From a virus (taxonomy: Duplodnaviria > Heunggongvirae > Uroviricota > Caudoviricetes): a DNA stretch of 64,000 nucleotides. Every line of letters starts with the position of its first letter. Position 1 is the stretch's first letter. The stretch is taken from the IMG/VR virus record IMGVR_UViG_3300021255_000139, one strand, 5' to 3'. The position numbers and the translations under genes are program-made. Shown here in pieces: positions 4,337 to 57,210 of the stretch. The notes under the pieces were generated by a model. It made no database searches. It was not told the origin of the DNA and saw nothing but the letters and a program-made list of their open reading frames with translations.

Positions 4337-4347
4337 GGTGGTGGGAT

Positions 4348-7300
4348 ATGCAGAATTATCATAGACATACATCTTACTCAAATATATTTACGCCTGATTC
4401 TGCAGCAATGAATGAGCATTATGCTAAACGTGCTGTGGAATTAGGGCATAAAATAATCTGTTCTATGGAACATGGATGGCAAGGAAATTATTTTGAATGT
4501 TATGAATTGGCAAAAAAATATAACCTTAAATTCGTGTTTGGGGTAGAAGGATATTGGGTTAAAGATAGACAAAAAGAATATTTTAATGGTCTGAATAAAA
4601 AAGGTGAAGAAACATATGCAAAAGACAGAAGCAACCATCATATTGTTTTACTTGCCAAAAATGAAAATGGTAGACAGGCAATAAATGAAGCATTGTCTGA
4701 AGCTAATGAAACTGGATATTATTTTAGACCACGATTAGATTTAGAGTTACTGTTAAATCTGCCACCAGATGATGTATTTGTAACAACTGCTTGTATAGCG
4801 TTTGCCGGATATGAAGATATAGATGATATCATTTTGCAGCTTCATGATCATTTTAAATCAAACTTCATGCTTGAAATACAGAATCATGACACTGATAAAC
4901 AAAGAGAATGGAATAAACATTTAAAAGAAATTGGAGAAAAACACGGAATTGAACTGATTGTCGGGTTGGACAGTCATTATATTTATGAAGATGATGACTG
5001 GAAACGTGATGCAATCTTGCAAGCAAAAGGTGTTATCTATGAGGACGAAATCGGGTGGTTCATGTCTTATCCGAGCGATGAAGTTGTTATGGAACGCTTT
5101 CTCAAACAAGGAATTTTCACACGAGAAGAAGTTCAAAGAGCAATGGATAACACAGATATTACATTGACGTTCGATGATTATGATAATGTTCCGATATTCT
5201 CAAAGGACATCAAACTGCCGACTTTATATCCTGATTTGACTATTGAAGAAAAGAATAAATTGTATCGTAGGTTGATTGGGAAAAAGTTTGTAGAGTACAT
5301 GAAGAAAATACCAAAAGAAGATTACGATAGATACTATGAAGGTGTTGAATCAGAAATAAAGACTTATGAAGATACTGGAATGGTTGATTATCCTCTTTTG
5401 GATTATGAAATTGTAAAGGATGCAGTAGAACATGGTGGACTAATCACCGACACCGGGAGAGGTAGTGCAGTTGGATTTTTGACAAATACATTGTGCGGAT
5501 TCTCAAAAGTTGATAGATTCACTTCTGCAATCAAACTGTACCCAGAGCGATTCATTTCAACAACGAGAATTTTAGAGACTCACAGTTTACCCGATATTGA
5601 CTTGAACGTTGGAACACCAGAGATATTTGAAGAAGCACAAGTACGAGTATTAGGACAAGAACATACTTATCCTATGATCGCATTTGGAACATTGAAAAAG
5701 AAATCAGCTTTCAAATTATATGCAAAAGCAGAAGGAATTGATTTTTCACTTGCTAATGCAATTTCTGAACAGATTGGAAATTATGATGAAGCATATAAGA
5801 AAGCTGATGATGAAGAAAGAGAAAGTCTTGATATTTATGATTTTGTAGATCGTGAATATGAAGAGTACCTTGAAAAAAGCCAAGAATATTGGGGAATTAT
5901 TTCTGATAAAAAGAAAGCACCGTCTGCCTATTTATTATATCAAGGAAATATTAGACGAGAAATAGGATTGATTAAATGTAAAAGTGAATCAACCAAAAAA
6001 GAATATATTACTTGTGTAATAGATGGTGCTGTCGCAGAAAACTACAAGTTTTTGAAAAACGACATATTGAAGGTCGATGTTGTCCTACTGATCGACAAAG
6101 TGTTTAAAAGAATAGGTATAGAACATTTTGATGTAAATACATTGTTAAAACTATCAGAAAATGATAATAAAGTTTGGGATTTGTATGCTAATGGCTATAC
6201 GATGGGAATGAATCAAGTTGAGCAAGACGGTAGTCGGAAAAAATGTATGAGGTATAAACCACATAATATTTCAGAATTGTCAGCTTTCGTTGCAGCGATA
6301 CGACCCGGATTCAAATCCATGTATAATAAATTTGAAAAACGAGAAGAGTTCAGCTATGGACTTCCTGCACTTGATAATTTAATACAGACAGAGCAATTCC
6401 CATATTCATACATGATTTATCAGGAAAATATAATGTCGGTATTGCATTATGCCGGATTTCCGATGGATCAATGCTACGGTATCATTAAAGCTATTGCTAA
6501 GAAACATCCAGAGAAGGTTCTTCCATTGAAGTCTCAATTCATAGAAGGATTTAAACAAAAAATCATTGAAGATGAACATATTAGTGAAGAAAAAGCGGAT
6601 GATTACAGTGCGATGGTATGGCAGATTATCAACGATAATGTCTCATACTCGTTTAATTCAGCCCATGCCTATAGTGTGGCATTGGATAGTCTTTATCAAG
6701 GTTGGCAAAAAGCAAATTATCCGTATGAATTTTATGAGACTCTTTTGCAGCACTATTCCGACAAAGGGAAAAAAGAGAAAGTTGCGGCACTAAAAAAAGA
6801 AATGAAGAAAGCCTTTAATATCCTTGAAGGTGATTATAAATTCCGTAACGATAACCGGGCTTTTGCATCAGATAAAGAAAAAGGTGTGATTTATCCATCC
6901 CTTGCATCTGTCAAAAATGTGTCACAGAAAACCGCAAACTCTCTCTACAAGTTAGGGAAAAATACATACAACTCATATATTGATCTTTTGGTCGATATAA
7001 AGAAAGAAAAGATAAATATACGGCAGCTTGACATCTTAATAAAGTTGGATTATTTTAGTGAATTTGGTGAAATTAACAATATTCTTGCGCAGACTGCATT
7101 GTTCGAGAAATTCTATACACGCAGCCAGATTAAAAAAGCAGATATTCCAGCACTTGATTTGTCCGAAGAAGTGATACGATCTCACGCCGGAAAAGAAACA
7201 GAAAAGTTATACTCTAACATAGATATGATTGCTCTAATTAAAGAATTGGCGAAATCTGTTTCAAGTCGTAGAACAACGACCGCACAGAAAGCATATTACC

Positions 7301-10945: not shown

Positions 10946-11872
10946 GTGAGCAAGAGCATTATTAAAACGTATTCTGTGATTAACAATCCAAAATATAAAA
11001 ATCCAGTGTGCAGCATTTCTGGAGGTGCGGATTCCGATATTATATTAGATTTATGTATGAATTGTGATCCAAACAAGAAAGTGAAATATGTATGGTTTGA
11101 TACTGGATTAGAGTATAAAGCAACAAAGGATCATCTAAAATATTTGGAAGAAATATATGATATAGAAATTGAAAGATTCAAAGCATTAAAGTCTATTCCT
11201 CATAGTTGTAAAGAATACGGGCAACCGTTTCTTTCAAAACAAGTCAGTGACTTTATAAGTAGGTTGCAGAAACATGGATTTCAATGGGAAGATGAATCTT
11301 ATGAAATATTATCTCAAAGATACTCGAATTGCAAATCTGCCCTTGAATGGTGGTGTTGTAATAAAGGAGAAAAAAGCAGATTCAATATCACAAACAATAA
11401 GTATTTAAAAGAGTTTATGGTAGAGAATCCACCTTGGTTTAAAATTTCAAGCAAATGCTGCAAATATGCAAAGAAAGATGTGGCAAAGGCACTTATAAAA
11501 TCAGGGAAACATGATCTCGATATAGTTGGAATTAGAAAAGCAGAAGGAGGTATTAGGTCATCTTTATATAAGAGTTGTTTTGCAGAAAATCAATTTACTG
11601 ATGATTACAGACCAGTATTCTGGTATAAAGATTCCGATAAAAGAGATTACGAAAACGCCTTTTGTATTACGCACAGTAAGTGTTATGAAGAATATGGTTT
11701 AAAGAGAACAGGATGTGCCGGGTGTCCATATAATAGATATTTTGAAGATGAATTATCAGTTATTGAAAAATATGAACCAAATTTATATAAAGCTGTTTGT
11801 ACAATTTTTAAGGATTCATATAAATACACACGGATGTATAAAGACTATGTAGAACAACAAAAATATAAATAA
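10946..11872 (+). CDS. PAPS reductase family / PP-loop ATP pyrophosphatase
   Basis: SGGADSD PP-loop, GIRKAEGGIRSS, RPVFWYKDSD motif, C-terminal Cys cluster; GTG start. Confidence 0.7.
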   Translation: MSKSIIKTYSVINNPKYKNPVCSISGGADSDIILDLCMNCDPNKKVKYVWFDTGLEYKATKDHLKYLEEIYDIEIERFKALKSIPHSCKEYGQPFLSKQVSDFISRLQKHGFQWEDESYEILSQRYSNCKSALEWWCCNKGEKSRFNITNNKYLKEFMVENPPWFKISSKCCKYAKKDVAKALIKSGKHDLDIVGIRKAEGGIRSSLYKSCFAENQFTDDYRPVFWYKDSDKRDYENAFCITHSKCYEEYGLKRTGCAGCPYNRYFEDELSVIEKYEPNLYKAVCTIFKDSYKYTRMYKDYVEQQKYK

Positions 11873-20555: not shown

Positions 20556-20939
20556 ATGAATAAATTTTATCTTTTGGTTGCTGGAACTCGAACATTTAAT
20601 GACTATGAACTTTTATCAAAGAAAATCAAGCAGCTAACAATCAAATACGGGAATGACATTTGTATCGTATCTGGTGGAGCAAAAGGAGCAGACACGTTAG
20701 CTGAACGATATGCAAAAGAACATGGTTTAGAATTTATAAAGTTTCCAGCGAAATGGGATGAATACGGAAAGAAAGCCGGATTTATCAGAAATGAAAAAAT
20801 GCATAATTATATCTCACAACACGAACATCGGGGTTGCGTTCTCTTTTGGGATGGGAGATCGAAAGGAACAAAACATAGTATAGCATTGTCAAAGAAGTAT
20901 GAAAATCAATTAAGAATTATTATGTATGAGGATCAATAA
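20556..20939 (+). CDS. SLOG/DUF2493-like nucleotide-binding protein
   Basis: LLVAGTRTFND ... IVSGGAKGADTLAERYA matches DUF2493/DprA-like Rossmann pattern. Confidence 0.5.
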   Translation: MNKFYLLVAGTRTFNDYELLSKKIKQLTIKYGNDICIVSGGAKGADTLAERYAKEHGLEFIKFPAKWDEYGKKAGFIRNEKMHNYISQHEHRGCVLFWDGRSKGTKHSIALSKKYENQLRIIMYEDQ

Positions 20940-21458: not shown

Positions 21459-21468
21459 GGATTTCATC

Positions 21469-21669
21469 ATGATTATAAAAGACATCGCAGAACTTCAAAA
21501 TAATTACAAAAAAATGATCGAATCAAATACTTTTTCAAAGAAAAGGTTAATTGAAATTTGTGTTCCATTTAGAGACAAATATCATCTTACTGATGGTCAA
21601 ACAGTAGCAATCGCAAGAGAAGAAATGTCTATATCTCAAATATATGAATTAGTGGGAGATGTTGAGTAA
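21469..21669 (+). CDS. hypothetical protein
   Basis: ORF with RBS. Confidence 0.35.
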   Translation: MIIKDIAELQNNYKKMIESNTFSKKRLIEICVPFRDKYHLTDGQTVAIAREEMSISQIYELVGDVE

Positions 21670-22286
21670 TGAATAAATACTATAAAACTTTTATCAGTGC
21701 AATCATTGCAGGAATATGTATCTCAATAGGTGGTACTTGTTTTCTTTCACTTGATAATAAAGTGATAGGAGCATTTATGTTTTCTTTAGGATTACTGACT
21801 ATTTGTTCTAATGAGTTTCATCTTTTCACCGGGAAAGTTTGTTTTGCAAGAAAGTGGGATGATTATCTTAACCTACTTTTAATATGGATCGGAAACTTTG
21901 TAGGTTGTGGGATTGTAGGGTTTTCTGTTAAATACACACGTCCGCAACTTATTCAGAAAGCGGTAGAAATTTGCAATATAAAAATGACAGAGAAGTGGTG
22001 GATGATTATCATTCTTGGGATTTTCTGCAATGTACTAATTTTCTTTGCTGTGAATAATTTCAAAGAGACAGCCAAAAAAGAAAAGGTAGTTCTCTTAATT
22101 ATGTGCGTGATGGCTTTCATACTATGCGGATTTGAACACTGTGTTGCAAATATGTTCTATTTCATTGTTGCCGGAACACCTGATTCTACAAGATATATAC
22201 TTCTCAATACGGTTGGAAATGCAGCCGGAGGTTTGGCAATCGGCTTAGTCTGTGAAAGGTTAAAGGTAAGACATGAGCATCTTTGA
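21669..22286 (+). CDS. formate/nitrite transporter (FNT) family channel-like membrane protein, short
   Basis: multi-TM; FEHCVANMFYF resembles FNT signature FEHSIANMF. Confidence 0.45.
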   Translation: MNKYYKTFISAIIAGICISIGGTCFLSLDNKVIGAFMFSLGLLTICSNEFHLFTGKVCFARKWDDYLNLLLIWIGNFVGCGIVGFSVKYTRPQLIQKAVEICNIKMTEKWWMIIILGIFCNVLIFFAVNNFKETAKKEKVVLLIMCVMAFILCGFEHCVANMFYFIVAGTPDSTRYILLNTVGNAAGGLAIGLVCERLKVRHEHL

Positions 22287-22661: not shown

Positions 22662-23633
22662 ATGATAGAACAAAATTTTTCGGAAAGGTTGCTGCAACGG
22701 TTTTGCAAAGATTGCAATTTACCTATCAACATTTATTCATATCCGTATTTTTACAGTCGGCTGAAACTATATGATCCGATTTATCACACAGTAGAAAAAT
22801 ATGATCTGTTTATTAAGAGCATGGAAAATTATGCGAACGAACAAGATTATTTTGAAGATTACAACAGAATTAAGGATGAAGCAATTACTGCAATTAAAAC
22901 ATCACAAGGCTACAAAGATTTCAATGAAGTTGATTTAGGAAAATTCATCGTTCATGATGATTATGCGCATTTGCCCGGCAGAGACATTTATCATCCTTCT
23001 AATGCAGATAAATCATTTTTGAGTATCGACATGAAACACGCCAACTTTAGTGTGTTAAAGTATTATACTTATGATATTTTTAATTCTGACACTTGGGAAG
23101 ATTTTATACGGAGATTTACTAATAATGAACATATTATCAAGAGTAAATATATTCGTCAGGTGATCTTAGGAAACTGCAATCCCGGCAGACATATAACATA
23201 CGAGAAATTTGTAATGTCGCACCTGATGCATAAGTTATATCTTTATTGTTTGAATCACGGTGTCAATCTTCCGTTTGATAAGATTGTAGCTTTCCACAAC
23301 GATGAATTGATTTATGATATTGGAGATTTTACTATCCCAGAAGCACTCGATGCAAAGGTTACGATTGATTCGTTTAAGAGTGAGATTCCGATTTCTTGCA
23401 CCATGTTTACTCTTTTTGATTTGGCTGGCTATGGCTATGCGAAGTTAATGCATGATGGACAGATAAAGTTGAAGTGTGTTGAAAATGAGTTTATGCCAAT
23501 GCTGCTTAGAAAAATATACCATGAAGAGATTCAGCCGGACGATATGGTATTTATGTTCAAGGGAGAAATCGCACGATTTGATAAAGTACCAGAAAAACTT
23601 AAAAATGGAAAATATCCAACATTCAGGAGGTAA
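22662..23633 (+). CDS. hypothetical protein
   Basis: ORF with RBS. Confidence 0.4.
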   Translation: MIEQNFSERLLQRFCKDCNLPINIYSYPYFYSRLKLYDPIYHTVEKYDLFIKSMENYANEQDYFEDYNRIKDEAITAIKTSQGYKDFNEVDLGKFIVHDDYAHLPGRDIYHPSNADKSFLSIDMKHANFSVLKYYTYDIFNSDTWEDFIRRFTNNEHIIKSKYIRQVILGNCNPGRHITYEKFVMSHLMHKLYLYCLNHGVNLPFDKIVAFHNDELIYDIGDFTIPEALDAKVTIDSFKSEIPISCTMFTLFDLAGYGYAKLMHDGQIKLKCVENEFMPMLLRKIYHEEIQPDDMVFMFKGEIARFDKVPEKLKNGKYPTFRR

Positions 23634-23640
23634 TGTCATC

Positions 23641-23940
23641 ATGGAACAAATGAAAAGCCACAAGTTTGATGCAGAAGAAAGAAAGGTTTTTGATTCTATT
23701 AAAACTGTGAAGCAGATGAATGTTTTATATTCTTCTTATGGAGATGAAAGAACAAAAGCCTTGCAGACAAGTTTGCAGTGTATGAGGAAATTCATTCCTG
23801 AAGTTGCCAGATTTGACAACAAAAGAAATAGATTCATTTGCCCTACTTGTGGAAATCGCATTAAATTAAGAAAGAACGATTTAATGAAATTCTGTGGTGA
23901 CTGTGGTCAAAAATTACTTTATGAAGGTATTGATGAATGA
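23641..23940 (+). CDS. zinc-ribbon protein
   Basis: CPTCGN...CGDCGQ; ATG 23641 after GGAGG; ORF-track start 23476 overlaps previous gene. Confidence 0.4.
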   Translation: MEQMKSHKFDAEERKVFDSIKTVKQMNVLYSSYGDERTKALQTSLQCMRKFIPEVARFDNKRNRFICPTCGNRIKLRKNDLMKFCGDCGQKLLYEGIDE

Positions 23941-24416
23941 GTTATAAAGAGATTCAGGCTGATTTATTTTCTATGCCAGAAGAGTATTTTCTCGCACATT
24001 GTATTAGTGCTGACTTAGGCATGGGAAAGGGAATCGTAGTTGAGTTTAATAAACGGTTTGATATGAAGAATAAGTTGGTGCGAAAATATGGCAATCGTTT
24101 AGACGAGTGGGATAAAAACGACTATGGAGAATGTATTCTTGAAGATCGTGTGTTTAATCTTATTACGAAACGAAATTACTGGAATAAACCAACTTATGAT
24201 ACGTTGATTTCCGCACTAAAAGATATGAGATATCAAGCCATTAACAATAATATTAAACATATAGCAATGCCTATGATTGGCTGTGGATTGGATAGACTCA
24301 ACTGGATTCGAGTATCATATATCATTCAGAAGATTTTTTCTGAAACAGATATAGAAATTGTTGTTTGTATGAATGCGAAAAATTATAAAATGTTCGCACA
24401 CAGGGAGAAAGAATGA
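23937..24416 (+). CDS. macrodomain protein (TARG1/OARD1-like ADP-ribosyl hydrolase)
   Basis: LAHCISADLGMGKGIVVEFNKRF closely resembles OARD1 core HCISEDCRMGAGIA. Confidence 0.55.
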   Translation: MSYKEIQADLFSMPEEYFLAHCISADLGMGKGIVVEFNKRFDMKNKLVRKYGNRLDEWDKNDYGECILEDRVFNLITKRNYWNKPTYDTLISALKDMRYQAINNNIKHIAMPMIGCGLDRLNWIRVSYIIQKIFSETDIEIVVCMNAKNYKMFAHREKE

Positions 24417-24895
24417 AACAGGTAATTGTAGCAAATAAGTCATTGAATATGAGTCCGGGAAAGTTAGCAGCTATGGTCGCACATGGATCAATCGCCTTTC
24501 TGATTGCATGGTTTAAAGAGTATACTGATATTTCCTTTGAAATCCAAACGCCAGACAAAAGATATGATTATGGATATGGAATGTTCGAGGATGCCAATAT
24601 TGACAGAACAACATTTTCCGAATGGATTAACGGATCATTTACAAAGATTGTTCTTGAAGCAGATCAAGATGAAATGGAAAATATTATAAGAGCAGCACAA
24701 GAGAATCATATGTATAATGGAGAAGATTTCTTCAACATTGTAGATGAATCAACAGAGTTTGAAAATATCCCACGATGGGCTGTTATTGCGTTTAGACCGA
24801 TGGAGTCTGAAGAAATTGATCCTATAACCGGGCATTTAAACCTTTATGGGAAAGAAGATAGTTCTTTAGATAATCAGGTGGAAACATGGACGTAA
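24413..24895 (+). CDS. peptidyl-tRNA hydrolase PTH2-like
   Basis: SPGKLAAMVAHGS resembles PTH2 GKGKIAAQCAHA. Confidence 0.45.
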   Translation: MKQVIVANKSLNMSPGKLAAMVAHGSIAFLIAWFKEYTDISFEIQTPDKRYDYGYGMFEDANIDRTTFSEWINGSFTKIVLEADQDEMENIIRAAQENHMYNGEDFFNIVDESTEFENIPRWAVIAFRPMESEEIDPITGHLNLYGKEDSSLDNQVETWT

Positions 24896-25778: not shown

Positions 25779-26232
25779 TGAAAATGAGAGTAAGAACAAG
25801 AGAAGAGAAGAAAATTAGTGACTTATTGAACACTATGTCATTAGTTGATATTAGAATAATTTCAGAAATAGAAGAAATACAACGAGGAAATGAACATTCT
25901 TCAAAAGATATATTGGAAGGAATTGAGTATATCCTTGAAGAAAGATTTGCATTTATGATTAGAGATGAAAATAAACCAGAATAAAAAGCTGGTTTTATTC
26001 TCATAGCTGTTTCAAGCCATGACTCTGGCTGGAAATCACGTTTTTGTGGATACTTTTTGTATGAGATAGATAAATCGTCATTCACCGTAATTCTATATAA
26101 TTTATGGAGTGTTCCGCTATGATCGAATGCTTTGATAATCTGTTTGTCCAACCAGTAATATCCCTCAAATAACGGTAATACGGCATTTTTTGCACTCCAC
26201 ATATCAATCAATTCTTTATATATTGGTTGCAT
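25750..26232 (-). CDS. hypothetical protein (3' extent uncertain)
   Basis: ATG 26232 preceded by AAGGAGA RBS; 26232-25990 part looks protein-like, remainder is probably antisense read-through. Confidence 0.3.
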   Translation of the reverse strand: MQPIYKELIDMWSAKNAVLPLFEGYYWLDKQIIKAFDHSGTLHKLYRITVNDDLSISYKKYPQKRDFQPESWLETAMRIKPAFYSGLFSSLIINANLSSRIYSIPSNISFEECSFPRCISSISEIILISTNDIVFNKSLIFFSSLVLTLIFISTFCSSVV

Positions 26233-27275
26233 ATTTCTCCTTTGCAATAAAACCAGCTTTTGAAATCAAAGAAAAGAAAAGCATCCAACTTATACAAGAT
26301 ACTGTTGACACTCACCCAGAGTATAGTTCTTTCGTGCTACATTCGACAGGAAAAGATAGTGTTGTCGTTCAGCATTTATGTGATATGGCAAATAGAAATA
26401 TAAAGACTGTTTTCAATAATACAACATTGGATTGTGCAGATACATACCGAATAGTCAATCTAAACAAAGACAAATGGATCATTACAACGCCGGACATAGG
26501 ATTCTATCAATATATTAAAAAAGAGAACTTTATTCCAACAAGATTTTCGAGAGCCTGTTGTTCAATATTTAAAGAAGGAAATCACATCAATCATTTTGAT
26601 AATGTCGATAAGGCAATATGGATAATGGGTGTTCGGAATGATGAAAGTGCAAAAAGATCGAACAGACAAGATATAGAACATAACCCAAAGTGGGGAAATC
26701 GAGAATGGATTGGGTTATTGCCTATTAGAAAATGGACAGAATTGGAAGTTTGGCTTTATATTATATTGAACAATTTGCCATTAAATCCGAAATATAGAAA
26801 AGGATATAAAAGATGTGGCTGCCATGTGGCGTGTCCATATCAGAGCAAATCTGATTGGATTCTTGATCAGTATTTCTATCCTAAAATGTATAATAGGTGG
26901 CATAATATTCTTGAAGATGATTTTATAAAAAATGGGAAATGGTGTACGCTTAATTGCACGATTGAAGAATATCATAAGTATTGGAACGGTGGTGTAGTTC
27001 GAGAAATTCCAACACGAGAAGTGATTGAAGAATTTATGAAATACAAAGGTATTGATGATTTTTCTTTGGCTGAGAAGTATTTCAACAAGAAGTGTAAGAA
27101 ATGTGGCAGACTGATACGATCTAAAGATGTAATAGCTATGAACTTGAAAATGAGAAGTCGGACTTGCTCTGATTTTTACTGTAAAAAATGCTTTATAAAA
27201 GAAGCTGAAATAACAAAAGAAGAATGGGATAGTTATATTAGTGGCTTCAAAAATGAAGGTTGTGTTTTGTTCTAA
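26190..27275 (+). CDS. PAPS reductase family / PP-loop ATP pyrophosphatase with C-terminal zinc ribbon (DndC/SspD-like)
   Basis: STGKDS PP-loop, GVRNDES, PIRKWTELEVWLYI, CGCHVACP, C-terminal CKKCGR...CKKC; TTG start. Confidence 0.7.
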   Translation: MHSTYQSILYILVAYFSFAIKPAFEIKEKKSIQLIQDTVDTHPEYSSFVLHSTGKDSVVVQHLCDMANRNIKTVFNNTTLDCADTYRIVNLNKDKWIITTPDIGFYQYIKKENFIPTRFSRACCSIFKEGNHINHFDNVDKAIWIMGVRNDESAKRSNRQDIEHNPKWGNREWIGLLPIRKWTELEVWLYIILNNLPLNPKYRKGYKRCGCHVACPYQSKSDWILDQYFYPKMYNRWHNILEDDFIKNGKWCTLNCTIEEYHKYWNGGVVREIPTREVIEEFMKYKGIDDFSLAEKYFNKKCKKCGRLIRSKDVIAMNLKMRSRTCSDFYCKKCFIKEAEITKEEWDSYISGFKNEGCVLF

Positions 27276-27349
27276 AATATCTGTTGACAAAACATTTACT
27301 TTATGATATTATAACGAATAGATAAATACAGAAAGGAAGTGAGACAAGA

Positions 27350-27919
27350 TTGAGTGTGAATATTACTAATCACGCTGCAATGAGGTATGCTGAAAGAATT
27401 GCCGATAAAGAATCATTAGCAGACATAAATACCTATGTTGCCAGAAACCGGGATAAGATAGAAAATGATATAAATACAATGCTTGATCATTCAGATTTTC
27501 TTTATCACGGAAGAGTAGGAACAAAAGATAACGGTGTTGTTGATGTATATCTCTCTGGAACATGGATTCTTTTATTGGATTCAGCCAAAAGCAAAGTGAT
27601 TACACTATACAAAGTTGATTTCAATGTGGGCGAAGATTTCAACAAGCAGTTCATTCAAAAGATTCTCGAACGAATGGAGATTCACAAGAAAGAACTGGAT
27701 GAAGTGAAAAAAGAAGTTGCAGAACAGCGTGAGAATTATCTGCAAATCATTAAAGATAACAAAAGTCAGATTGCAGAATATAAGAACGCTATAAGGCAGT
27801 TAGAAAATCTCAATACCGATTATCAAGATATTGTTGACACTATGGATGCAAAATGTATAGCTTCTGAAATTGCAATCCGGCATGATGTTGAAGATTTAGT
27901 TATGAAGAGGGAGTTCTAA
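27350..27919 (+). CDS. coiled-coil protein
   Basis: ORF; heptad-like charged C-half. Confidence 0.4.
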   Translation: MSVNITNHAAMRYAERIADKESLADINTYVARNRDKIENDINTMLDHSDFLYHGRVGTKDNGVVDVYLSGTWILLLDSAKSKVITLYKVDFNVGEDFNKQFIQKILERMEIHKKELDEVKKEVAEQRENYLQIIKDNKSQIAEYKNAIRQLENLNTDYQDIVDTMDAKCIASEIAIRHDVEDLVMKREF

Positions 27920-29097
27920 TGCTTTATTACGATAATGCAGCAACAACAAGGGTTGACAAAAGTTTAGAGCCAATTTTGCAGAGTATGTTCTTTGACAATT
28001 ACGGCAACCCATCAAGCGTACATACAGTCGGACAATATGCAAAAGAAGTAATTGAGAGAGCGAGGGAGTTGGTTGCGATTTCCATAAATTGCGCACCAGA
28101 TGAAATCATTTTCACATCAGGAGGATCAGAGTCAAATAACCTTGCCCTTAAAGGATTTTCATTTGCGAATGACTGTGAGATTATCACAAGTCCTATTGAA
28201 CACAAGTCAATTTTAGAGACTTGTAAATTCTTACAGAATCAACAAATAAATAAATACTACACTGTCGATGTGGATTCAGACGGTGTGGTTGAAATGTTTA
28301 GTCTGCAAGAAAGAATAGCAGAGGTTAAAAGTTATAATCTGATTCCGCTGGTAAGTATTCAGTTGGCAAATAGTGAAATCGGAACGATTCAACCAATTAA
28401 GGAAATAGCAAAAGTTGTTCATTCTTTTGGTGGTGTTCTTCACGTTGACGCAGTTCAGGCGTACTTCACAATCCAAATTGATGTTCAAGATATGGGAATT
28501 GATATGCTGTCCGTATCTGGTCATAAGATTGGAGTTCCGAAAGGGATAGGCTTTTTATATAAGAAGAAAAGCATACATATCGAACCTTTAATTCATGGTG
28601 GTGGTCAAGAACATGGATTGAGAGCCGGAACAGAGAACACTCCGTATATTGCAGCTTTAAACGATAAACTTTGTCGAGATTTCAGCGAAGAAGATATAGG
28701 GCAAAAAGCGGAACAGCTTTATCAAATGAGGACGTATCTCGAAAAGAAACTGTTAAAAATTCCAGATTCAAGAATCAATGGAGCAGAAAACAAACTACCG
28801 GGGAATATAAATATCAGTTTCAAAGACATTGACGGAGAAACACTTATGATGCTTCTCGACACAAATGATTTAGAGGTATCAAATGGTTCAGCTTGTAATG
28901 CTGGAAATCCAGAACCTTCATATGTACTGAAAGCTATCAAAGTTCCAGATGACTATATTAACGGAACAATTCGGATCACGATTGCCCCGAAAAAGAAATC
29001 AAATTCATATCGGTTAGAATCGAAAGATTTTGCAGAACTTGATATGGTTGCAGATAAGATAAGTAAATATGTAAGTGTTTTAAGAAAAGTTAGGTAG
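27919..29097 (+). CDS. cysteine desulfurase (class V aminotransferase, IscS/NifS/DndA-like)
   Basis: YYDNAATT N-terminus, SGGSESN, PLP lysine motif SVSGHKIGVPKG, active-site Cys region NGSACNAG. Confidence 0.8.
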   Translation: MLYYDNAATTRVDKSLEPILQSMFFDNYGNPSSVHTVGQYAKEVIERARELVAISINCAPDEIIFTSGGSESNNLALKGFSFANDCEIITSPIEHKSILETCKFLQNQQINKYYTVDVDSDGVVEMFSLQERIAEVKSYNLIPLVSIQLANSEIGTIQPIKEIAKVVHSFGGVLHVDAVQAYFTIQIDVQDMGIDMLSVSGHKIGVPKGIGFLYKKKSIHIEPLIHGGGQEHGLRAGTENTPYIAALNDKLCRDFSEEDIGQKAEQLYQMRTYLEKKLLKIPDSRINGAENKLPGNINISFKDIDGETLMMLLDTNDLEVSNGSACNAGNPEPSYVLKAIKVPDDYINGTIRITIAPKKKSNSYRLESKDFAELDMVADKISKYVSVLRKVR

Positions 29098-29106
29098 GAG
29101 GACAAG

Positions 29107-29727
29107 ATGAATATCGAGAAAATCAAAGATGCATTGAAAGTTTTTAGCTGTGAAGTTATCAGCCAGAATGAAAATGAAGCAGTTATCAAAGTATCGAAGA
29201 AAACCGTGAAACTGGCAGATATCCCGAATGGATCAACTTTTAAAGTCGGGAAATTCGAGTTTATTAAACTTGGAGATGCTGCAGACGGAGAAACAACAGC
29301 GGTTATTCTGAAAGAATTTGTAAAGAGGATGGAATTTGGCAAGCATAACAACTACGCCAAAAGTGATGTGCGTAAATATCTCAACAGTGATTTCCTGAAG
29401 GAACTTGAAAAAGAAGTTGGTGCAAACAATATATATGAACATAAGGTTGATTTGATTGCAAATGACGGTCTGAAGGATTATGGAAGTGTAAGAGATAAGG
29501 TTAGTCTGATCACAGCAGAAAATTACAGAAGATATCGTGAGTTTCTTCCGAATTATGGTGATTGGTGGTGGACTGCAACACCATATTCATGTGAATCCAA
29601 CGGTTATGCGTCCAACGTTTGTTACGTGTACTGCAGCGGTTCTTTGGGCGGGATCGACTGTGGCGATTCGGAGGGTGTGCGCCCGTTTTGCATCTTTTCA
29701 TCTTCAATCTTTGTATCTTGTGAATAA
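29107..29727 (+). CDS. DGR1 variable target protein (C-type-lectin-like VR at C-terminus)
   Basis: C-terminal codons 29602-29690 match TR1 except at TR adenines. Confidence 0.7.
   Translation: MNIEKIKDALKVFSCEVISQNENEAVIKVSKKTVKLADIPNGSTFKVGKFEFIKLGDAADGETTAVILKEFVKRMEFGKHNNYAKSDVRKYLNSDFLKELEKEVGANNIYEHKVDLIANDGLKDYGSVRDKVSLITAENYRRYREFLPNYGDWWWTATPYSCESNGYASNVCYVYCSGSLGGIDCGDSEGVRPFCIFSSSIFVSCE
29602..29690 (+). repeat. DGR1 variable repeat (VR1)
   Basis: about 80-90 nt copy of TR1; differences almost exclusively at TR A positions. Confidence 0.75.
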
Positions 29728-29748
29728 ATTAGAGAGTAGCCGAAGTCT

Positions 29749-30123
29749 ATGGACGATAATGAAAAACTAAAAATTGTCAATAAAGCTAAAGAGTTGTTCG
29801 ATTGCACTTTGACAAATACATCAAATAGAAAAAAGTTTCCAGCAAAATACAGAGTTCTTGTTGAAAGAATGCAAAATAAAAGTATAGACATTTATGACTG
29901 TATAATGGATGCGAATCGAAAAAGGCTATACATTCCAAAGGAGAAGATAGATAGAAATTCATTACAAACACAAGCTATTGCTGATTGTGACAAACTTAAT
30001 ATGTTTATTGAAACTGCAATGAATCACAATCTAATTTCTGCCGGATTGTGCGATGAATGGTCAAAGAAAGTAAAAGATGTTAAATACATGACGATTGCAT
30101 GGAGAACAAACGATAATAGCTAA
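29749..30123 (+). CDS. avd: Avd (accessory variability determinant)
   Basis: 124 aa helical basic protein between VR and TR; KFPAKYRVLVERMQNKSIDIYDCIMDANR resembles Avd family. Confidence 0.55.
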   Translation: MDDNEKLKIVNKAKELFDCTLTNTSNRKKFPAKYRVLVERMQNKSIDIYDCIMDANRKRLYIPKEKIDRNSLQTQAIADCDKLNMFIETAMNHNLISAGLCDEWSKKVKDVKYMTIAWRTNDNS

Positions 30124-30125
30124 CT

Positions 30126-30224
30126 CAGGTTATGTGTTGTAGCGTCCAACGTTTGTTACGTGTACAACAACGGTACTTTGAACAGGAACGACTGTGACTA
30201 TTCAAAGGGTGTGCGCCCGTTCTG
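30126..30224 (+). repeat. DGR1 template repeat (TR1)
   Basis: seen directly; AAC-rich; shared GC-rich 3' end GGGTGTGCGCCCGT (IMH-like). Confidence 0.75.
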
Positions 30225-31365
30225 GTGGATAGCGAGGGCGAGTAAGCAATATGCTGAAAGGAGAACAACATCATCAAAAGAACACATAACCTTTCCAAAT
30301 AAAAAGGATAAATACAAAGGTTTAAATAAAATATTGACAGACTTTCAAAAAGTCGTAGACTTCGGAAACTTATATAGAGCATATAAGAAAGCCAAAAAAG
30401 GTAAAAGAAATAAACGAAGTGTAGTAAAATTCGCCATTGTAGCACTTGAAGGTATTCATTTACTAAGAGAACTACTGACAAAGAGAACATATACAATTTC
30501 TTCATATGGCGAATTTACTATATTTGAACCAAAAGAAAGATTAGTAAAGTCTGGAGCATTTAAAGATAAAGTAGTTCAGCATTCATTGTGTGATAATGTC
30601 TTATTACCAACAATGGCAGAGTTATTTATAGAGAATAATTTCGCCGGACAAATAGGGAAAGGAACATTATTCGGACTGGATCATTTGAAGAACGATATGC
30701 TGCAATTCCATAAAGAACATGGAATGGACGGCTATATTCTAAAATGCGATATTACTAAATTCTTTTATACCATAGACCATGATGTATTGAAAAGTGTTGT
30801 CCGAAAATACTTTTCGGATGAAGGTATTATTTGGTTATGTGATCTATTTATAGATAGTACAGATGGAGTAGGAATACCACTTGGAAATCAAGTAAGTCAA
30901 GTATTCGCACTAATGTACTTAAATGAATTGGATCACATTATAACAGAAGAATTACATATAAAGTATTATGGAAGATATATGGATGACTTTTATTTAATAC
31001 ATGAAGATAAAGAATACTTGAAATATTGTCTGAATGTAATTCAAGAGCATATTCATAGTTTGAAATTAACATTGAATGGTAAAACACAGATTATGCCGTT
31101 CAAAAATGGCATCAAATTTCTTGGCTTTCATACATATGTGACACCAGAAGGAAAAGCAATACGGAAACTCAAAAATGAAAATAAGCGCATGATTAAAAAG
31201 CGTTTATTAAAACACAGCAAACTTGTTAAGGCTGGAAAGATGACAAAAGAGAAGTTCTTTGAATCATATGAATCGTGGAAAAATCACGCATCACATGGAA
31301 ACTGTATTAAGCTGATTTATCAAATGGATAAATATGTTGAAGAACTATTCAAGGAAACAAAATAA
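30160..31365 (+). CDS. DGR reverse transcriptase (RT1)
   Basis: RT motifs ILKCDITKFFYTIDH, IPLGNQVSQVFAL (DGR-type GxxxSQ), YGRYMDDFYLI; ORF-track N-terminus is translated TR, true start probably about 30250-30340. Confidence 0.8.
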   Translation: MYNNGTLNRNDCDYSKGVRPFWWIARASKQYAERRTTSSKEHITFPNKKDKYKGLNKILTDFQKVVDFGNLYRAYKKAKKGKRNKRSVVKFAIVALEGIHLLRELLTKRTYTISSYGEFTIFEPKERLVKSGAFKDKVVQHSLCDNVLLPTMAELFIENNFAGQIGKGTLFGLDHLKNDMLQFHKEHGMDGYILKCDITKFFYTIDHDVLKSVVRKYFSDEGIIWLCDLFIDSTDGVGIPLGNQVSQVFALMYLNELDHIITEELHIKYYGRYMDDFYLIHEDKEYLKYCLNVIQEHIHSLKLTLNGKTQIMPFKNGIKFLGFHTYVTPEGKAIRKLKNENKRMIKKRLLKHSKLVKAGKMTKEKFFESYESWKNHASHGNCIKLIYQMDKYVEELFKETK

Positions 31366-31401: not shown

Positions 31402-31560
31402 TTGAACCCGGCATTTATCATACTTGTGATTATCATTTGTATCGCAGTGTGGTTTTTGGCATCGGCTCTTTACAAACCTATTGGAAAATTCGTAGGTAAA
31501 GTTGGAGAAGATGCTATCAAAGAATTAACAGATGAAGAAAAGGAGAACGAAGAAACATGA
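31402..31560 (+). CDS. small membrane protein (52 aa), not in ORF track
   Basis: TTG start, one TM helix, stop overlaps ATG of SPFH gene (ATGA). Confidence 0.3.
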   Translation: MNPAFIILVIIICIAVWFLASALYKPIGKFVGKVGEDAIKELTDEEKENEET

Positions 31561-32468
31561 AAAGAAGAGGTTTTGTAGGTGGTATCACACTTGCAATCAT
31601 TATTATTATAACTATTATTTTAATGATCTTTTGCACAACGAGAGTGCCAGCCGGATATGTTGCGGTTCAGTATAACATGAATGGCGGTGTCAAAGAAGAA
31701 GTTCTTTCACAGGGATTTCATGTTGTTCCACCGACAGTAAAGACAACACTCTACACAGTAGGGCTTGAACAGAGTTATCTTACATCGGATTCTCGTGGAG
31801 ATTCAGAAGATGACGAAAGTTTTTCTGCCAGTTCTTCCGAAGGTAAAGCAATTCAGATTGATCTTACATTTACATACCAGTATCAGCCAGAAAATGTAGT
31901 CGGAGTTTTTAACAGATTTAAAGGGCAGAGTGGAAAAGAAGTAAGAGATAGCTTTATTAAACCTAACATTATTTCATGGACAAAGGAAATTGTAGCAAAA
32001 TATAAGGTGTCGGATATTCTTGGAGCGGAAAGAGCAAATATCAATATTACTATGACAGATTATCTTTCTAAGAAATTTGAACCATATGGAATTACAATCA
32101 GCAATGTTTCTCTTATCAATGTTGAAGTAGATGAAGAAACCAGAGAAGCAATTAACGCAAAAATTACCGCACAGCAGAATGCAGAAACACAGAATATCAA
32201 TAATCAGACAGCTATTGACAAAGCTGCAGCAGATGCAGAAGTTGCACGTACAAACGCACAGGCAAAAGCAGATGCGAAAATGATTGAAGCTGAAGCAGAA
32301 GCAAATGCGAACAAACTTCTTGAACAGTCACTTACAGATAAGATTCTTAGACAGAGATATATTGAAAAATGGAATGGAGAACTGCCGAAGGTGTCTGGTG
32401 ACAACGCTATGATTCTTGACATGAATGATTTTGAAACTACTGAAACTACTGAAAATACGGACAAATAA
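31557..32468 (+). CDS. SPFH/band-7 (stomatin/prohibitin-like) membrane protein
   Basis: N-terminal TM then PAGYVAVQYNMNGG SPFH core and Ala/Glu-rich coiled coil. Confidence 0.65.
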   Translation: MKRRGFVGGITLAIIIIITIILMIFCTTRVPAGYVAVQYNMNGGVKEEVLSQGFHVVPPTVKTTLYTVGLEQSYLTSDSRGDSEDDESFSASSSEGKAIQIDLTFTYQYQPENVVGVFNRFKGQSGKEVRDSFIKPNIISWTKEIVAKYKVSDILGAERANINITMTDYLSKKFEPYGITISNVSLINVEVDEETREAINAKITAQQNAETQNINNQTAIDKAAADAEVARTNAQAKADAKMIEAEAEANANKLLEQSLTDKILRQRYIEKWNGELPKVSGDNAMILDMNDFETTETTENTDK

Positions 32469-33298: not shown

Positions 33299-33601
33299 AT
33301 GGAGAGAAGAAATCCGGGAGAGTACACAACATACGAAACAAGAGCGTTAGCTAATGAGTCGGTTGATCGTAGAATGAGATATGAACAAGTTCTTGAATGT
33401 TTAAGAGATAAGCCTATGACTGCAAAAGAAGTTGCAGTTGAGATGATGAACAAAGGTTATATCCCAACATCAGAACGAAATTTTACCGCACCACGATTGA
33501 CTGAACTTTCGCAGAGAGGATTAGTCGAACCGATTGGAAAAACGCAGTGTCAGTATACCGGGAAAACAGTCGCAGTTTACGCACTAAGGAGCGCATCATG
33601 A
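33299..33601 (+). CDS. winged-helix DNA-binding protein
   Basis: MTAKEVAVEM...LTELSQRGLVEPIG wHTH-like. Confidence 0.35.
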   Translation: MERRNPGEYTTYETRALANESVDRRMRYEQVLECLRDKPMTAKEVAVEMMNKGYIPTSERNFTAPRLTELSQRGLVEPIGKTQCQYTGKTVAVYALRSAS

Positions 33602-34194
33602 GCAACTTTTACATAGCAGATTTACACCTATTCCATGAAAACGTTTTGAAGGATGGACGATTTCACGAACGACCATTTGAAACACTTGAAGAAATGCACA
33701 AAGTTATTGTGAATAATTGGAATGAAGTTATAACAAATGGAGATATGGTTTATCTTTTGGGTGACGTTGCGCATAAAGGTAATCCATTAGAAGTAGCCAG
33801 TTTATTGGCTCATTTAAAGGGTCAAATTGTTCTGATAAAGGGTAATCATGATAAAGTTCAGGATCAGAGATTGAGAAAGCAGTTTGTCGAAGTTTTAGAT
33901 TATAAGGAAATTGTTGATAACATTGATGGGAAAGCTGTTCCTGTCGTATTGTCGCACTATCCTATATTCTCATGGAAAGGACAGTTCAGAGGTGCGGTAC
34001 ATCTTTACGGTCACGTTCACGATAATGATGATGATATACTTTATCAAAATGCAATAAAGACAGCAGATGACTACTTTAAGAAAAGGGACGGAGAAAGACA
34101 TAAACCATTCATGGCTTTTAATGTTGGATGTATGAAAGATTATATGAATTATAAACCGAGAACATTGAAAGAAATAATTGCTGCAAACGCTTGA
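33598..34194 (+). CDS. calcineurin-like metallophosphoesterase
   Basis: DLHLFH, GDVAHKG, GNHD, GHVH metal-ligand motifs; ATG 33598 after AAGGAG. Confidence 0.65.
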   Translation: MSNFYIADLHLFHENVLKDGRFHERPFETLEEMHKVIVNNWNEVITNGDMVYLLGDVAHKGNPLEVASLLAHLKGQIVLIKGNHDKVQDQRLRKQFVEVLDYKEIVDNIDGKAVPVVLSHYPIFSWKGQFRGAVHLYGHVHDNDDDILYQNAIKTADDYFKKRDGERHKPFMAFNVGCMKDYMNYKPRTLKEIIAANA

Positions 34195-34238
34195 CAAATA
34201 GATAAAATGTGGTACAATAAGAACGAATAAATAAATAC

Positions 34239-35573
34239 ATGGGAGATGATATGTATACACTAATGAATTGGAATCCAGTATATAATTTTGTGTTTATGAT
34301 TAAACATGAATATCAGAAGAAAATAGGACAGCCAGAATACAAAAAGTATGAAGTTGACGGAAAAGAGATTACTTGTCTGGAGTATTGGATTCTCGCACTC
34401 AATAACAAAGATTATACAGATAGGATCAAGTATCTGGAAATCAACCAAAATAAAGAATTGTTGTTGGTGCGATATGCTAAGTATTCAGATGTTCTTAGCG
34501 GTGAAGAAGAGATTATACTTGATGATATTTGGGATATGTACGATGGTTTCTATCTCGAATGCCGGAGTGTGGTTTTTGATTTGAAGTCAGAAGAAATTGT
34601 GATTGCTCCGTTTAAAAAATTCCGCAACCTAAACGAATGTCCTGAAAATTCACTCGAAAACGTGACAAAAGAAATCAATAGTGCGAAGAATGTTGAAGTG
34701 TCAAATAAACTTGATGGCTCTATGCAGTGCGCACGTTGGTACAGAAATCACGTTGTTATGTCTGGAAGTCAGGCGATTGATCCGGCTATGTCGTGGAGAT
34801 TGCAAGACGGTCTAAGAATGCTGAACGAAAATCCAAGCTACACAGAAATGCTCCGATTCTTCCCGAATACAACATTCATTTTTGAATACATTTCATTAGC
34901 CGATGCTCATGTAGTTAAATATTCAAAAGAAGAAGAAGGTTTATATCTGGTTGGAATGAGAGATGTTTGTACTGGATTTCAACATTCATACAAAGCTGTG
35001 CTTGCAGTTGCTAAAAGATATGGAATTAAATGTACGAGTGTTTTCGACAAAACACTTGACGAAGTTCTTGAAGATGTCAAACAAATAAAGTCGGAAGATC
35101 AAGAAGGATTTGTTCTCAATATTATTTATGAAGATGGTTCTTCCCGGCTTATCAAAATCAAGGGCGATGATTATGTTCATATTCATAAGATTCTCTCAAA
35201 ATTATCCTCGATCAATCTTATTATAAAAGCGATTGCGGACGGAAATGTTGACGATTTGAAAGCAAAAATTCCAGCAGCTTATAAGAACAGAGTAACGGTG
35301 TTGGAGAAAATCGCACGAGATTTCGTCAAAAAACAGGAACATACAGTAAACGAATATTATTTCTATTCACCAAAATCAGACAAGAAAACCTTTATGATTT
35401 GGGTGGAAAAGAATGTTCCAAAGGAATATAAATCTTACGTGAGAAACTGTTATCTTGGAATTAAGAATAATTATTTGAAGTCTCACGCTGAAACCAAGAA
35501 TCCCAGATACATTAAATTGGTAGAAATGGGAGTAAAACGAGAAGATTATACAACAATCTTTTCAGAGGAGTAG
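34239..35573 (+). CDS. RNA ligase-like nucleotidyltransferase
   Basis: covalent nucleotidyltransferase motif I SNKLDGSMQ (KxDG). Confidence 0.5.
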   Translation: MGDDMYTLMNWNPVYNFVFMIKHEYQKKIGQPEYKKYEVDGKEITCLEYWILALNNKDYTDRIKYLEINQNKELLLVRYAKYSDVLSGEEEIILDDIWDMYDGFYLECRSVVFDLKSEEIVIAPFKKFRNLNECPENSLENVTKEINSAKNVEVSNKLDGSMQCARWYRNHVVMSGSQAIDPAMSWRLQDGLRMLNENPSYTEMLRFFPNTTFIFEYISLADAHVVKYSKEEEGLYLVGMRDVCTGFQHSYKAVLAVAKRYGIKCTSVFDKTLDEVLEDVKQIKSEDQEGFVLNIIYEDGSSRLIKIKGDDYVHIHKILSKLSSINLIIKAIADGNVDDLKAKIPAAYKNRVTVLEKIARDFVKKQEHTVNEYYFYSPKSDKKTFMIWVEKNVPKEYKSYVRNCYLGIKNNYLKSHAETKNPRYIKLVEMGVKREDYTTIFSEE

Positions 35574-36521
35574 TTGTTAATGCAAAAGTTTATTATGATG
35601 TGTGGACTTCCCGGTAGTGGAAAATCTACATACGCAAAGAAACATTTTGTCGGAGAAAATGTAGCATATCTTTCGTCTGACGAATTAAGAGAGGAACTTC
35701 TTGGTGATGAAAATAATCAGGAAGAGAACGGAAAAGTATTTGAAGAAATGGAAAGACGCACTATTTCAGCTTTAAAAGCCGGGAAAAGTGTTGTATACGA
35801 TGCTTGTAATACAAGCTATAAGAAACGGTCACACCTTATCAAACAGATAAATAGATACGGAATACAAAAGATTTGTGTTGTGGTTTATGCTGATTTAGCC
35901 GACTGTATTTCGAGAAATCTCAATAGAGAAAGAAAAGTTCCAAAAGAAGCAATCGAAAAAATGCTCAAAGGCTTTTATTTTCCGCAGTATTTTGAAGGTT
36001 GGGATGAAATCAAGATTGCCGGAACAATCCATACTGGTGAAGCCACCGAGATGCTTAACGAGTTGTTCTTTGGTAAAGATGGTTTGATTTATCAGGATCA
36101 TGATAATCCGCACCACAAACTTTCGATTGGTTATCACTGTTTGATGTGCTATGCTAGTGCTTTATTCTTGGGCGGTGATGAAAATCTGCAGTTAGCTGCA
36201 TTATTCCATGATATTGGAAAGCCGTTCACGAAGGGATTTAAAGATAGTAAAGGAAACGAAAGCGAAGAAGCCCACTATTACCAGCACCATTTAGTTTCTG
36301 GATATTTTGCAGTTCCTTATCTATATAGTGCAGATGCCGTTCAGAAAGACGATTTAAAAGATATTCTTGAAATTCTCGCACTGATTGATTACCATATGCA
36401 TCCTTATTTTTGGGAGAAAGATGATAATAATAAGATGAAAGAAAAGTATCATAATTTATGGGGTGATGATCTGTACAACAAAATTCTTTTACTTCATGAA
36501 TGTGATGAAAGGGCGCACTAA
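35574..36521 (+). CDS. polynucleotide kinase (P-loop) fused to HD phosphohydrolase (Pnkp-like)
   Basis: CGLPGSGKST Walker A at N-terminus; LAALFHDIGKPF HD motif in C-half. Confidence 0.65.
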   Translation: MLMQKFIMMCGLPGSGKSTYAKKHFVGENVAYLSSDELREELLGDENNQEENGKVFEEMERRTISALKAGKSVVYDACNTSYKKRSHLIKQINRYGIQKICVVVYADLADCISRNLNRERKVPKEAIEKMLKGFYFPQYFEGWDEIKIAGTIHTGEATEMLNELFFGKDGLIYQDHDNPHHKLSIGYHCLMCYASALFLGGDENLQLAALFHDIGKPFTKGFKDSKGNESEEAHYYQHHLVSGYFAVPYLYSADAVQKDDLKDILEILALIDYHMHPYFWEKDDNNKMKEKYHNLWGDDLYNKILLLHECDERAH

Positions 36522-56859: not shown

Positions 56860-57210
56860 TTAAATCAAAGAACTCAATTCTACAATGCATTCTTTCAATT
56901 CATTGTTTTCGGTTCTAAGTTTTGCGATAATTTCAGCATCAGTCATGTCTCTTTCATCAGTCCATGCAATACCATAAGCCCAAAACTTATCAAAATTATC
57001 AATAATGTTTTGTTCGCTTGTAGCTGCACTGTCAATCTGGAAGAACACTTCGTCTGCAGTTTGCACTTCATATTCTTCGCCGTTCTCATTACGAGTTTCA
57101 GTCTTTATATTTTTTCTAAGCCATACATCGGCAATCCCATTGTGGGGCATATAAAGAACAGGAACGAGTTCAATATCAAGCGGCATTAACGTTTTGCAAA
57201 TATTGCTCAT
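56860..57210 (-). CDS. acidic hypothetical protein
   Basis: ORF. Confidence 0.35.
   Translation of the reverse strand: MSNICKTLMPLDIELVPVLYMPHNGIADVWLRKNIKTETRNENGEEYEVQTADEVFFQIDSAATSEQNIIDNFDKFWAYGIAWTDERDMTDAEIIAKLRTENNELKECIVELSSLI

Follow-up and report, generated by a model that had tools for sequence, protein, structure and literature searches.

A TARG1-class macrodomain gene and a divergent PTH2 gene side by side in one lineage of uncultured gut phage

This analysis concerns two neighbouring genes in the IMG/VR record IMGVR_UViG_3300021255_000139, an uncultured phage of the class Caudoviricetes, of which a stretch of 64,000 nucleotides (nt), here called the window, was studied. Two co-directional open reading frames (ORFs) exactly occupy positions 23937-24895 on the plus strand. 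The first, at 23937-24416, encodes a TARG1/OARD1-type macrodomain protein of 159 amino acids (aa), recognised by its sequence and by profile searches. The second, at 24413-24895, encodes a PTH2-family protein of 160 aa, recognised by profile searches, a fold model and an alignment. Both proteins have the conserved catalytic residues of their families. Their adjacency is not conserved outside the nearest relatives.

We favour, with moderate confidence, a reading in which the macrodomain and PTH2 are two independent accessory enzymes that would protect the nucleic acids and the tRNA pool of a gut phage of ~166 kb. Both enzymes are probably active. We infer these activities, their substrates and a connection with RNA repair, and several alternatives are weighed below.

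Domain identity of the two proteins

In a phmmer search against the PDB, the top matches of the macrodomain protein are structures of human TARG1/OARD1 (4j5r, 4j5q, 2eee), with E=1.4e-25 over aa 6-143. The phage and human proteins share 39% identity over 142 residues (BLASTP E=1e-34). In terms of active-site residues, K78 of the phage protein, within an ITK motif, aligns to K84 of TARG1, also within ITK, and D119 aligns to D125, both within IGCGLD. Lys84 and Asp125 are what we take to be the catalytic dyad of TARG1, with residue roles from Sharifi et al. 2013. The loops that bind ADP-ribose are kept as well, with GMGKG aligned to RMGAG of TARG1 and IGCGLD the same in both proteins. An earlier model-made interpretation of the DNA (the sequence-only reading) had proposed this OARD1/TARG1 affinity, which is confirmed here; the core motif that it quoted, LAHCISADLGMGKGIVVEF, is present at aa 19-37. 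Human TARG1 (C6orf130; 4J5R, 4J5S, 2EEE) is also a single-domain protein, of ~150 aa, and shares the dyad and both loops. Compared with it, the phage macrodomain has a loop longer by 9 residues (aa 50-65) and a C-terminal tail of 15 residues.

As for family profiles, the protein matches PHROG 335 (E=5e-29). The Pfam family Macro (PF01661) gives 21.4 bits, with a gathering score of 22 (E=2.5e-4), as a partial match at 79-126, and a precomputed PF01661 match is present in some close homologues. No other Pfam family, Macro_2 included, matched at E<=0.1. On this evidence the ORF is best described as encoding a macrodomain of the TARG1 class whose active site is intact, a predicted mono-ADP-ribosyl hydrolase.

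A first alternative is that the macrodomain is an orphan DarG-like factor of the AdfM type, which would strip thymine-linked ADP-ribose off phage DNA and so defeat DarTG2, with PTH2 as an unrelated or auxiliary neighbour. We consider such an anti-DarT role possible, though rather unlikely. DarG models do match the macrodomain, both in NCBIfam (NF048014, E=4.7e-13) and in PADLOC (E=6.4e-16). The DarG macrodomain of Thermus aquaticus (5m31) is also found by phmmer, and the catalytic Lys is conserved. In the literature, TARG1 reverses thymine ADP-ribosylation of the DarT type (PMC13036486), and the phage macrodomain AdfM, published in 2026, counters DarTG2 (PMC13309987).

However, the NCBIfam score is far under the family cut-off (49.1 against 250 bits), and the matches are limited to the macrodomain part of the models, at profile positions 26-153 of 338 in NCBIfam and 27-152 of 329 in PADLOC. 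The protein is much nearer to TARG1, an enzyme of many substrates, than to the Thermus protein (E=1.4e-25 against E=3.3e-5 in the same search). It has no DarT-binding domain, and none of the flanking ORFs gave a Pfam, NCBIfam or PADLOC match to DarT or to an ADP-ribosyltransferase. A tblastn search at E<=1e-5 recovered no homologue of the chimallivirus AdfM. Finally, rather than DNA-protection genes, the macrodomain has a phosphoesterase, a CCA-adding enzyme and KptA as its neighbours in relatives.

In terms of known systems, the DarG2 macrodomain and AdfM (PhiKZ gp104 family; PMC13309987) belong to the same TARG1/ALC1-like class and share the catalytic Lys. Like AdfM, the macrodomain of the window is an orphan in a phage that lacks a cognate toxin. 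Unlike DarG2, it has no C-terminal DarT-binding domain, and the similarity is weak. A DarG antitoxin or a DarTG system as the identity of the gene was rejected, given the missing C-terminal domain, the lack of an adjoining DarT and the sub-threshold DarG scores. The link to DarT/DarG drawn in the sequence-only reading therefore holds only in the sense that such an adduct is one of several possible substrates.

Next, the PTH2 ORF matches the whole profile of Pfam PTH2 (PF01981, positions 1-115 of 115) at 64.6 bits (cut-off 23, E=1.2e-17), as well as PHROG 1866 (E=1.4e-17). The signature by which the gene was originally noticed, GKLAAMVAHG, is found at aa 16-25. The suggestion to search the Macro, Macro_2 and PTH2 families, made together with that observation, thus gave a clear match for PTH2, a score just below threshold for Macro and none for Macro_2. 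The NCBIfam equivalog models for Pth2 scored below their cut-offs, with 48.5 against 126 for NF003314 and 39.9 against 82 for TIGR00283. By these scores the protein appears to be a divergent member of the PTH2 family and not an archaeal Pth2 equivalog.

An alignment of 37 PTH2 homologues has seven invariant residues, K17, H24, W71, D111, E115, F127 and P129, and K17 aligns to the GK of archaeal Pth2 enzymes. K17 and D111 are presumably the counterparts of Lys18 and Asp86, the catalytic residues of the S. solfataricus enzyme (numbering from Fromant et al. 2005). An AlphaFold model has a pLDDT of 88 and a pTM of 0.82, and its best 12 Foldseek matches in the PDB are all Pth2 structures, with probability 1.00 and target TM values of 0.69-0.82. 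In the model, an insert of ~20 residues after helix 1 forms a beta-hairpin (aa 38-57). For both ORFs, the match scores are well outside what chance would produce.

The archaeal and eukaryotic Pth2 enzymes (1XTY of S. solfataricus, 1WN2 of P. horikoshii, 2ZV3 of M. jannaschii and human PTRH2/Bit1, 1Q7S) have the same fold, and share with the phage protein the GK..AA..AH motif and the positions of the catalytic Lys and Asp. The phage protein is longer, with 160 aa against ~115-120 aa, and adds the hairpin and a C-terminal tail. It also has AAMVAH where the known enzymes have AAQVAH, and DESTEF in place of their DxGxT loop. Two PTH2 subfamilies were found, one of the query type, with AAMVAHG and IVDESTEF, and a more canonical one, with AAQVSHGS and DNCHTELEPE. 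The PTH2 proteins of the phage collection are only 29-38% identical to it, and those of the cultured phages XacN1, Atu_ph07, SCTP-2 and Phabba 29-34%.

Two further observations were made among the PTH2 homologues. Many have 236-245 aa (P0033, P0047, P0050, P0064 and others), and these long homologues carry a C-terminal extension of ~85 residues that has no Pfam match. In the relative L089, the gene directly after PTH2 (1699-1953) matches the Pfam family ‘Sequestin’ (PF21825).

Conservation of the gene pair

The sequence-only reading had presented the two genes as a functional pair, which the relatives do not bear out. Of the 54 PTH2 and 70 macrodomain loci, just two each have the partner within 5 kb, and these form a single cluster at 70% identity. 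In IMG/VR we sampled 18 PTH2 loci (50-58% identity, full-length matches) and 68 macrodomain loci (52-66% identity), with flanks of 6 kb. The two genes were together in none of them (0/18 and 0/68), and the contigs with PTH2 and those with the macrodomain had no names in common. A search with the PTH2 alignment gave 52 loci in bacterial and archaeal genomes, and here again a TARG1-like macrodomain was within 10 kb in none (0/52).

The adjacency, 4-nt overlap included, is kept only in L088, which is 97-99% identical, and in L087, where PTH2 has 73% and the macrodomain 79% identity and the order of the genes is unchanged. At 64% PTH2 identity, in L089, the macrodomain is gone. In cultured phages, PTH2 and the macrodomain are found in separate genomes, and the sole metagenomic phage record with both genes has 200 kb between them. 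Furthermore, among the 120 + 120 best homologues there is no protein in which both Pfam domains are present. An obligate pair or a fusion was rejected in view of this pattern of conservation, with adjacency in one shallow lineage and no fusions. As the adjacency is confined to the nearest relatives, the side-by-side position appears to be a young, lineage-specific juxtaposition in a shuffling accessory region, and not a conserved two-gene system.

In the window, the macrodomain stop and the PTH2 start share 4 nt (ATGA). Overlaps of start and stop codons are usual along the whole plus-strand gene arm, so that this one is no special signal.

A true functional module would read these facts differently. 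The two enzymes would act on one substrate class, with translational coupling for co-expression; for example, the macrodomain might clear ADP-ribose from tRNA or mRNA, either uracil-linked or as a 5'-phosphate cap from a Tpt1-like enzyme, while PTH2 would clear the peptidyl-tRNAs stranded by the damage. The ATGA overlap has been kept in L087 at 73-79% identity, and each gene pairs with the same family of 257-aa metallophosphoesterases, in different relatives. KptA is found near both genes (near PTH2 in L105, near the macrodomain in L028, L032, L036 and L081), and TARG1 efficiently removes 5'-phosphate-linked ADP-ribose from RNA (PMC11833690). Nevertheless, we regard such a module as improbable, given the single shallow lineage, the separate sets of IMG/VR contigs, the normality of overlapping codons along the arm and the lack of fusion proteins.

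RNA-repair context and predicted roles

The reading that we favour, of two independent accessory enzymes, draws on the genes around them. A module for the healing and sealing of RNA ends lies at 33547-36521 on the same strand, 9 kb downstream of PTH2. It contains a calcineurin-like phosphoesterase (33547-34194, Pfam Metallophos), an Rnl1-type RNA ligase (34239-35573, PHROG 562 and Pfam RNA_lig_T4_1) and a polynucleotide kinase-HD phosphohydrolase (35574-36521, Pfam AAA_33 and HD), all on the plus strand. A close known counterpart is the Pnkp-Rnl1 tRNA repair of T4, to which the three proteins of this module are comparable. Such a module may be the shared functional context of PTH2 and the macrodomain.

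In relatives, genes of this kind are seen closer to PTH2. In the bacterial genome of Butyrivibrio proteoclasticus P18 (L105, 8879-13227) it is part of a dense tRNA-repair cluster, a run of Rnl1 ligase, PTH2, Metallophos, Thg1 and Tpt1/KptA, followed by an AAA ATPase and a VWA/metallopeptidase protein. Thg1 comes directly after PTH2 in L102-L104, and an OB-fold RNA ligase and two phosphoesterases flank it in L117 and L118. Phosphoesterases near PTH2 are also found in L106, L110, L116 and L129.

The macrodomain has a comparable set of neighbours. KptA and a CCA-adding enzyme are upstream of it in the four relatives with KptA named above, and 16 loci have a CCA-adding enzyme no more than ~3 kb upstream. 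In L071, L073 and L078 its neighbourhood includes Rnl1, Thg1 or a phosphoesterase of the type in the window. A calcineurin-like metallophosphoesterase of 257 aa (PHROG 1649) starts 13 nt after the macrodomain in 27 loci (within L020-L086, e.g. L020 6001-7218) and has no informative sequence match in the PDB. The same family adjoins PTH2 or is near it in L013-L015 and L107. In 23 related loci, an uncharacterised protein of 180 aa (PHROG 8839) is directly upstream of the macrodomain; an ADP-ribosyltransferase identity was considered for it, but nothing found speaks for this.

These neighbourhoods fit earlier proposals. PTH2 in phages has been proposed to release peptides from cleaved tRNAs and to act in ribosome rescue (PMC7824862), and Macro domains to deal with by-products or adducts that KptA-type RNA repair leaves, and to remove ADP-ribose adducts (PMC9503650). 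Of the two roles that the sequence-only reading had offered, reversal of ADP-ribosylation and rescue of translation, the RNA-repair context in some relatives backs rescue over a dedicated reversal pair.

We propose the following mechanism. The macrodomain and PTH2 would be co-transcribed in the long plus-strand arm for replication and host takeover. The Lys78/Asp119 dyad of the macrodomain would cleave C1''-linked ADP-ribose from an adduct, either of a macromolecule or of a small molecule. The likeliest substrate may be a nucleic acid, with ADP-ribose linked to thymine or uracil or placed on a phosphate end; TARG1 can undo each of these linkages, the phosphate-end one on RNA (PMC13036486, PMC11833690). 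Its removal would make phage DNA or RNA usable again. PTH2, through Lys17, His24 and Asp111, would hydrolyse the ester of a peptide or N-acyl-amino acid at the 3' end of a tRNA, and the tRNA would return to the pool after ribosome stalling or drop-off. Together with the phosphoesterase, Rnl1 and kinase-HD module, both enzymes would be part of a general upkeep kit under host attack.

Several observations weigh against this reading. Many of the loci are near-duplicates, and the counts of repair genes come without a background rate for phage accessory regions. Of the 17 PTH2 clusters at 70% identity, one has repair genes nearby and five have phosphoesterases, and the repair-gene evidence for the macrodomain comes entirely from 1 of 6 clusters. 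With near-duplicates collapsed, the association of both genes with RNA-repair genes is thus suggestive. A tblastn search of the window for KptA, Thg1 and a CCA-adding enzyme was negative, and Pfam, PHROG and PADLOC scans of ~58 ORFs gave none of these three nor an ADP-ribosyltransferase. No tRNA genes were found in the window either. The repair module is 9 kb away, with a PAPS reductase, a diversity-generating retroelement and a methylase in between. In cultured phages (G, Fnu1, LpeD, LC76P1), the neighbours of the macrodomain are almost all hypothetical proteins. Finally, the TARG1-class macrodomains DarG, SCO6735 and AdfM have been tied by experiment to the removal of ADP-ribose from thymine in DNA, which favours the anti-DarT role for the macrodomain.

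Another explanation takes both enzymes away from RNA cleavage. PTH2 would counter GNAT toxins (TacT, AtaT, ItaT) by hydrolysing N-acetyl-aminoacyl-tRNA, and so restore translation, while the macrodomain would independently degrade immune signals or metabolites derived from ADP-ribose, such as cyclic ADP-ribose variants, ADP-ribose-1''-phosphate or O-acetyl-ADP-ribose. Pth detoxifies tRNA acetylated by TacT (PMC9241777), although this activity is that of bacterial Pth1 and not of PTH2. The soluble-signal part is plausible from PMC9503650, according to which SLOG domains are predicted to process derivatives of NAD or ADP-ribose and co-occur with Macro in phages. A YAcAr (YspA/cpYpsA-related SLOG) protein is encoded at 20556-20939 on the plus strand (Pfam E=8e-18), 3 kb upstream of the macrodomain. 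However, this SLOG gene is not adjacent, enzymes of the TARG1 class are better known for macromolecular substrates, and no GNAT toxin or signal-sponge context was seen around the two genes. We give this explanation a slim chance.

The last explanation involves o189, an uncharacterised protein of 189 aa encoded at 27350-27919 on the plus strand. No other neighbour of PTH2 is as well conserved in relatives: of 54 loci, 20 have o189 within 5 kb and 13 have it directly upstream, among them a metagenome-assembled genome (MAG) of Christensenella, at 40% identity. The model of o189 (pLDDT 91) has an N-terminal alpha/beta domain followed by a single helix of 90 residues. H8, R12, Y13 and R16 of the N-terminal domain are invariant. 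Foldseek gave weak matches to the tRNase domains of colicin D and CdiA (E=0.05-0.2), from which no fold is claimed. The best sigma-70-like promoter match of the region, at 27284-27312, is just upstream of o189.

It is conceivable, but very unlikely, that damaged or modified (peptidyl-)tRNA is served by a loose, shuffling set of four genes (macrodomain, PTH2, 257-aa metallophosphoesterase and o189), in which a tRNA hit by a phage or host tRNase or by an ADP-ribosyltransferase would lose its peptide to PTH2 and have its ADP-ribosylated ends or bases uncapped by the macrodomain, before the phosphoesterase, kinase and Rnl1 heal and seal it. If true, this four-gene tRNA set would add to phage tRNA repair a branch that is aware of ADP-ribose and has so far not been described.

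Surrounding genome and known counterparts

Exact copies of both proteins are present on many metagenomic contigs of 165-170 kb, which points to a phage genome of ~166 kb. A megablast search with 20-30 kb of the window gave no match in 50,697 phage records, so that a close annotated relative is lacking there, and no Rfam families were found in the window. One near-identical copy of the macrodomain is in a MAG labelled Bacteroidaceae. Distant PTH2 homologues come from MAGs of Lachnospiraceae, Butyrivibrio, Christensenella and other Clostridia, many of them from the ruminant gut.

The genes of the plus strand agree with a phage. Those for replication and DNA repair are a DnaB helicase, a primase, a PD-(D/E)XK nuclease, a polymerase of the PolIII-alpha type, an ERCC4 nuclease and an NAD-dependent DNA ligase, and there are also several DNA methylases and a serine integrase. 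Nucleotide metabolism is represented on the same strand by ThyA, DHFR, guanylate kinase, and NrdD with its activase. Endolysins and tail genes are on the minus strand.

The macrodomain and PTH2 are part of a tightly packed run of plus-strand genes. Between 20 and 30.5 kb no terminator-like sites were found, with 3.7 expected from shuffles, which fits a single long transcription unit. In a promoter scan of the region, the count of promoter-like sites was not above the shuffled expectation. Upstream of the macrodomain is a small ORF at 23605-23940 on the plus strand, with weak zinc-ribbon matches at its C-terminus. Its stop overlaps the macrodomain start, again by ATGA, and a gene of 111 aa is called at its position in L088. 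We place it as a gene co-transcribed upstream of the macrodomain, and thus as context only. On the other side, the ORF after PTH2 overlaps it by 10 nt.

A diversity-generating retroelement was found at 29107-31365 on the plus strand. It is composed of a DUF6273 target gene (29107-29727, with the variable repeat at 29608-29690), Avd (29749-30123), the template repeat (30142-30224) and a reverse transcriptase (30160-31365). The two repeats have 83 nt each and are 84% identical, with mismatches at template adenines. A second reverse transcriptase (57176-58507, minus strand, PHROG 1423) is located among tail and lysis genes, and may belong to a second diversity-generating retroelement.

Two proteins with PAPS-reductase domains, and a candidate Aminotran_5 protein near the second, are encoded on the plus strand in the regions 10946-11872, 26190-27275 and 27919-29097. 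The match to Aminotran_5 (class V aminotransferase) is that of the counterpart protein in L088. The window has at least five DNA methylases, and the PAPS-reductase proteins, the candidate aminotransferase and the methylases may form a sulfur-dependent system of DNA or RNA modification.

Further genes of the plus strand encode a membrane protein of the formate/nitrite transporter family (21669-22286, Pfam E=2e-30), an unusual auxiliary gene in the early-gene arm, and an SPFH/Band 7 domain protein (31557-32468, Pfam E=1e-25) in the accessory arm. In L088, an insertion sequence with a DDE_Tnp_1 transposase of 495 aa (3505-4992) separates the YAcAr region from the transporter gene; in the window, at ~21460-21670, this element is missing.

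Lastly, in terms of earlier reports, neither gene is core equipment of phages, as the sequence-only reading had correctly stated, and both are common accessory genes that are already catalogued (PMC7824862, PMC9503650). Macro domains occur in ~40% of phages of medium size and in 56% of the jumbo phages (PMC9503650). PTH2 is recorded across jumbo phages (PMC7824862, Iyer et al. 2021), and in the phage collection it is annotated in mycobacteriophages and jumbo phages.

The phages with PTH2 reported previously, jumbo phages and mycobacteriophages (XacN1, Atu_ph07, SCTP-2, Phabba; PMC7824862), have large genomes with RNA ligase and end-healing enzymes. Compared with the jumbo phages, the lineage of the window is an uncultured, non-jumbo gut phage, in which o189 is the commonest neighbour of PTH2. 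The likeness to the KptA-2H-Macro type of RNA repair (PMC9503650) is one of gene context only, and the window yielded no KptA or 2H enzyme.

With both families catalogued in phages (Iyer et al. 2021, 2022), this is no new kind of system. The mildly new points are only the hairpin-bearing PTH2 subfamily and the recurrent uncharacterised partner o189. No experimental study of any phage PTH2 was found in the literature searched, and for this reason the hairpin-bearing PTH2 and o189 are reasonable candidates for a first functional test. If the proposed roles are true, a common lineage of gut phages of ~166 kb invests in the reversal of ADP-ribosylation and the recycling of trapped tRNA, on top of an RNA ligase/kinase repair module. 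This would fit hosts that attack both the nucleic acids of the phage and the translation apparatus.

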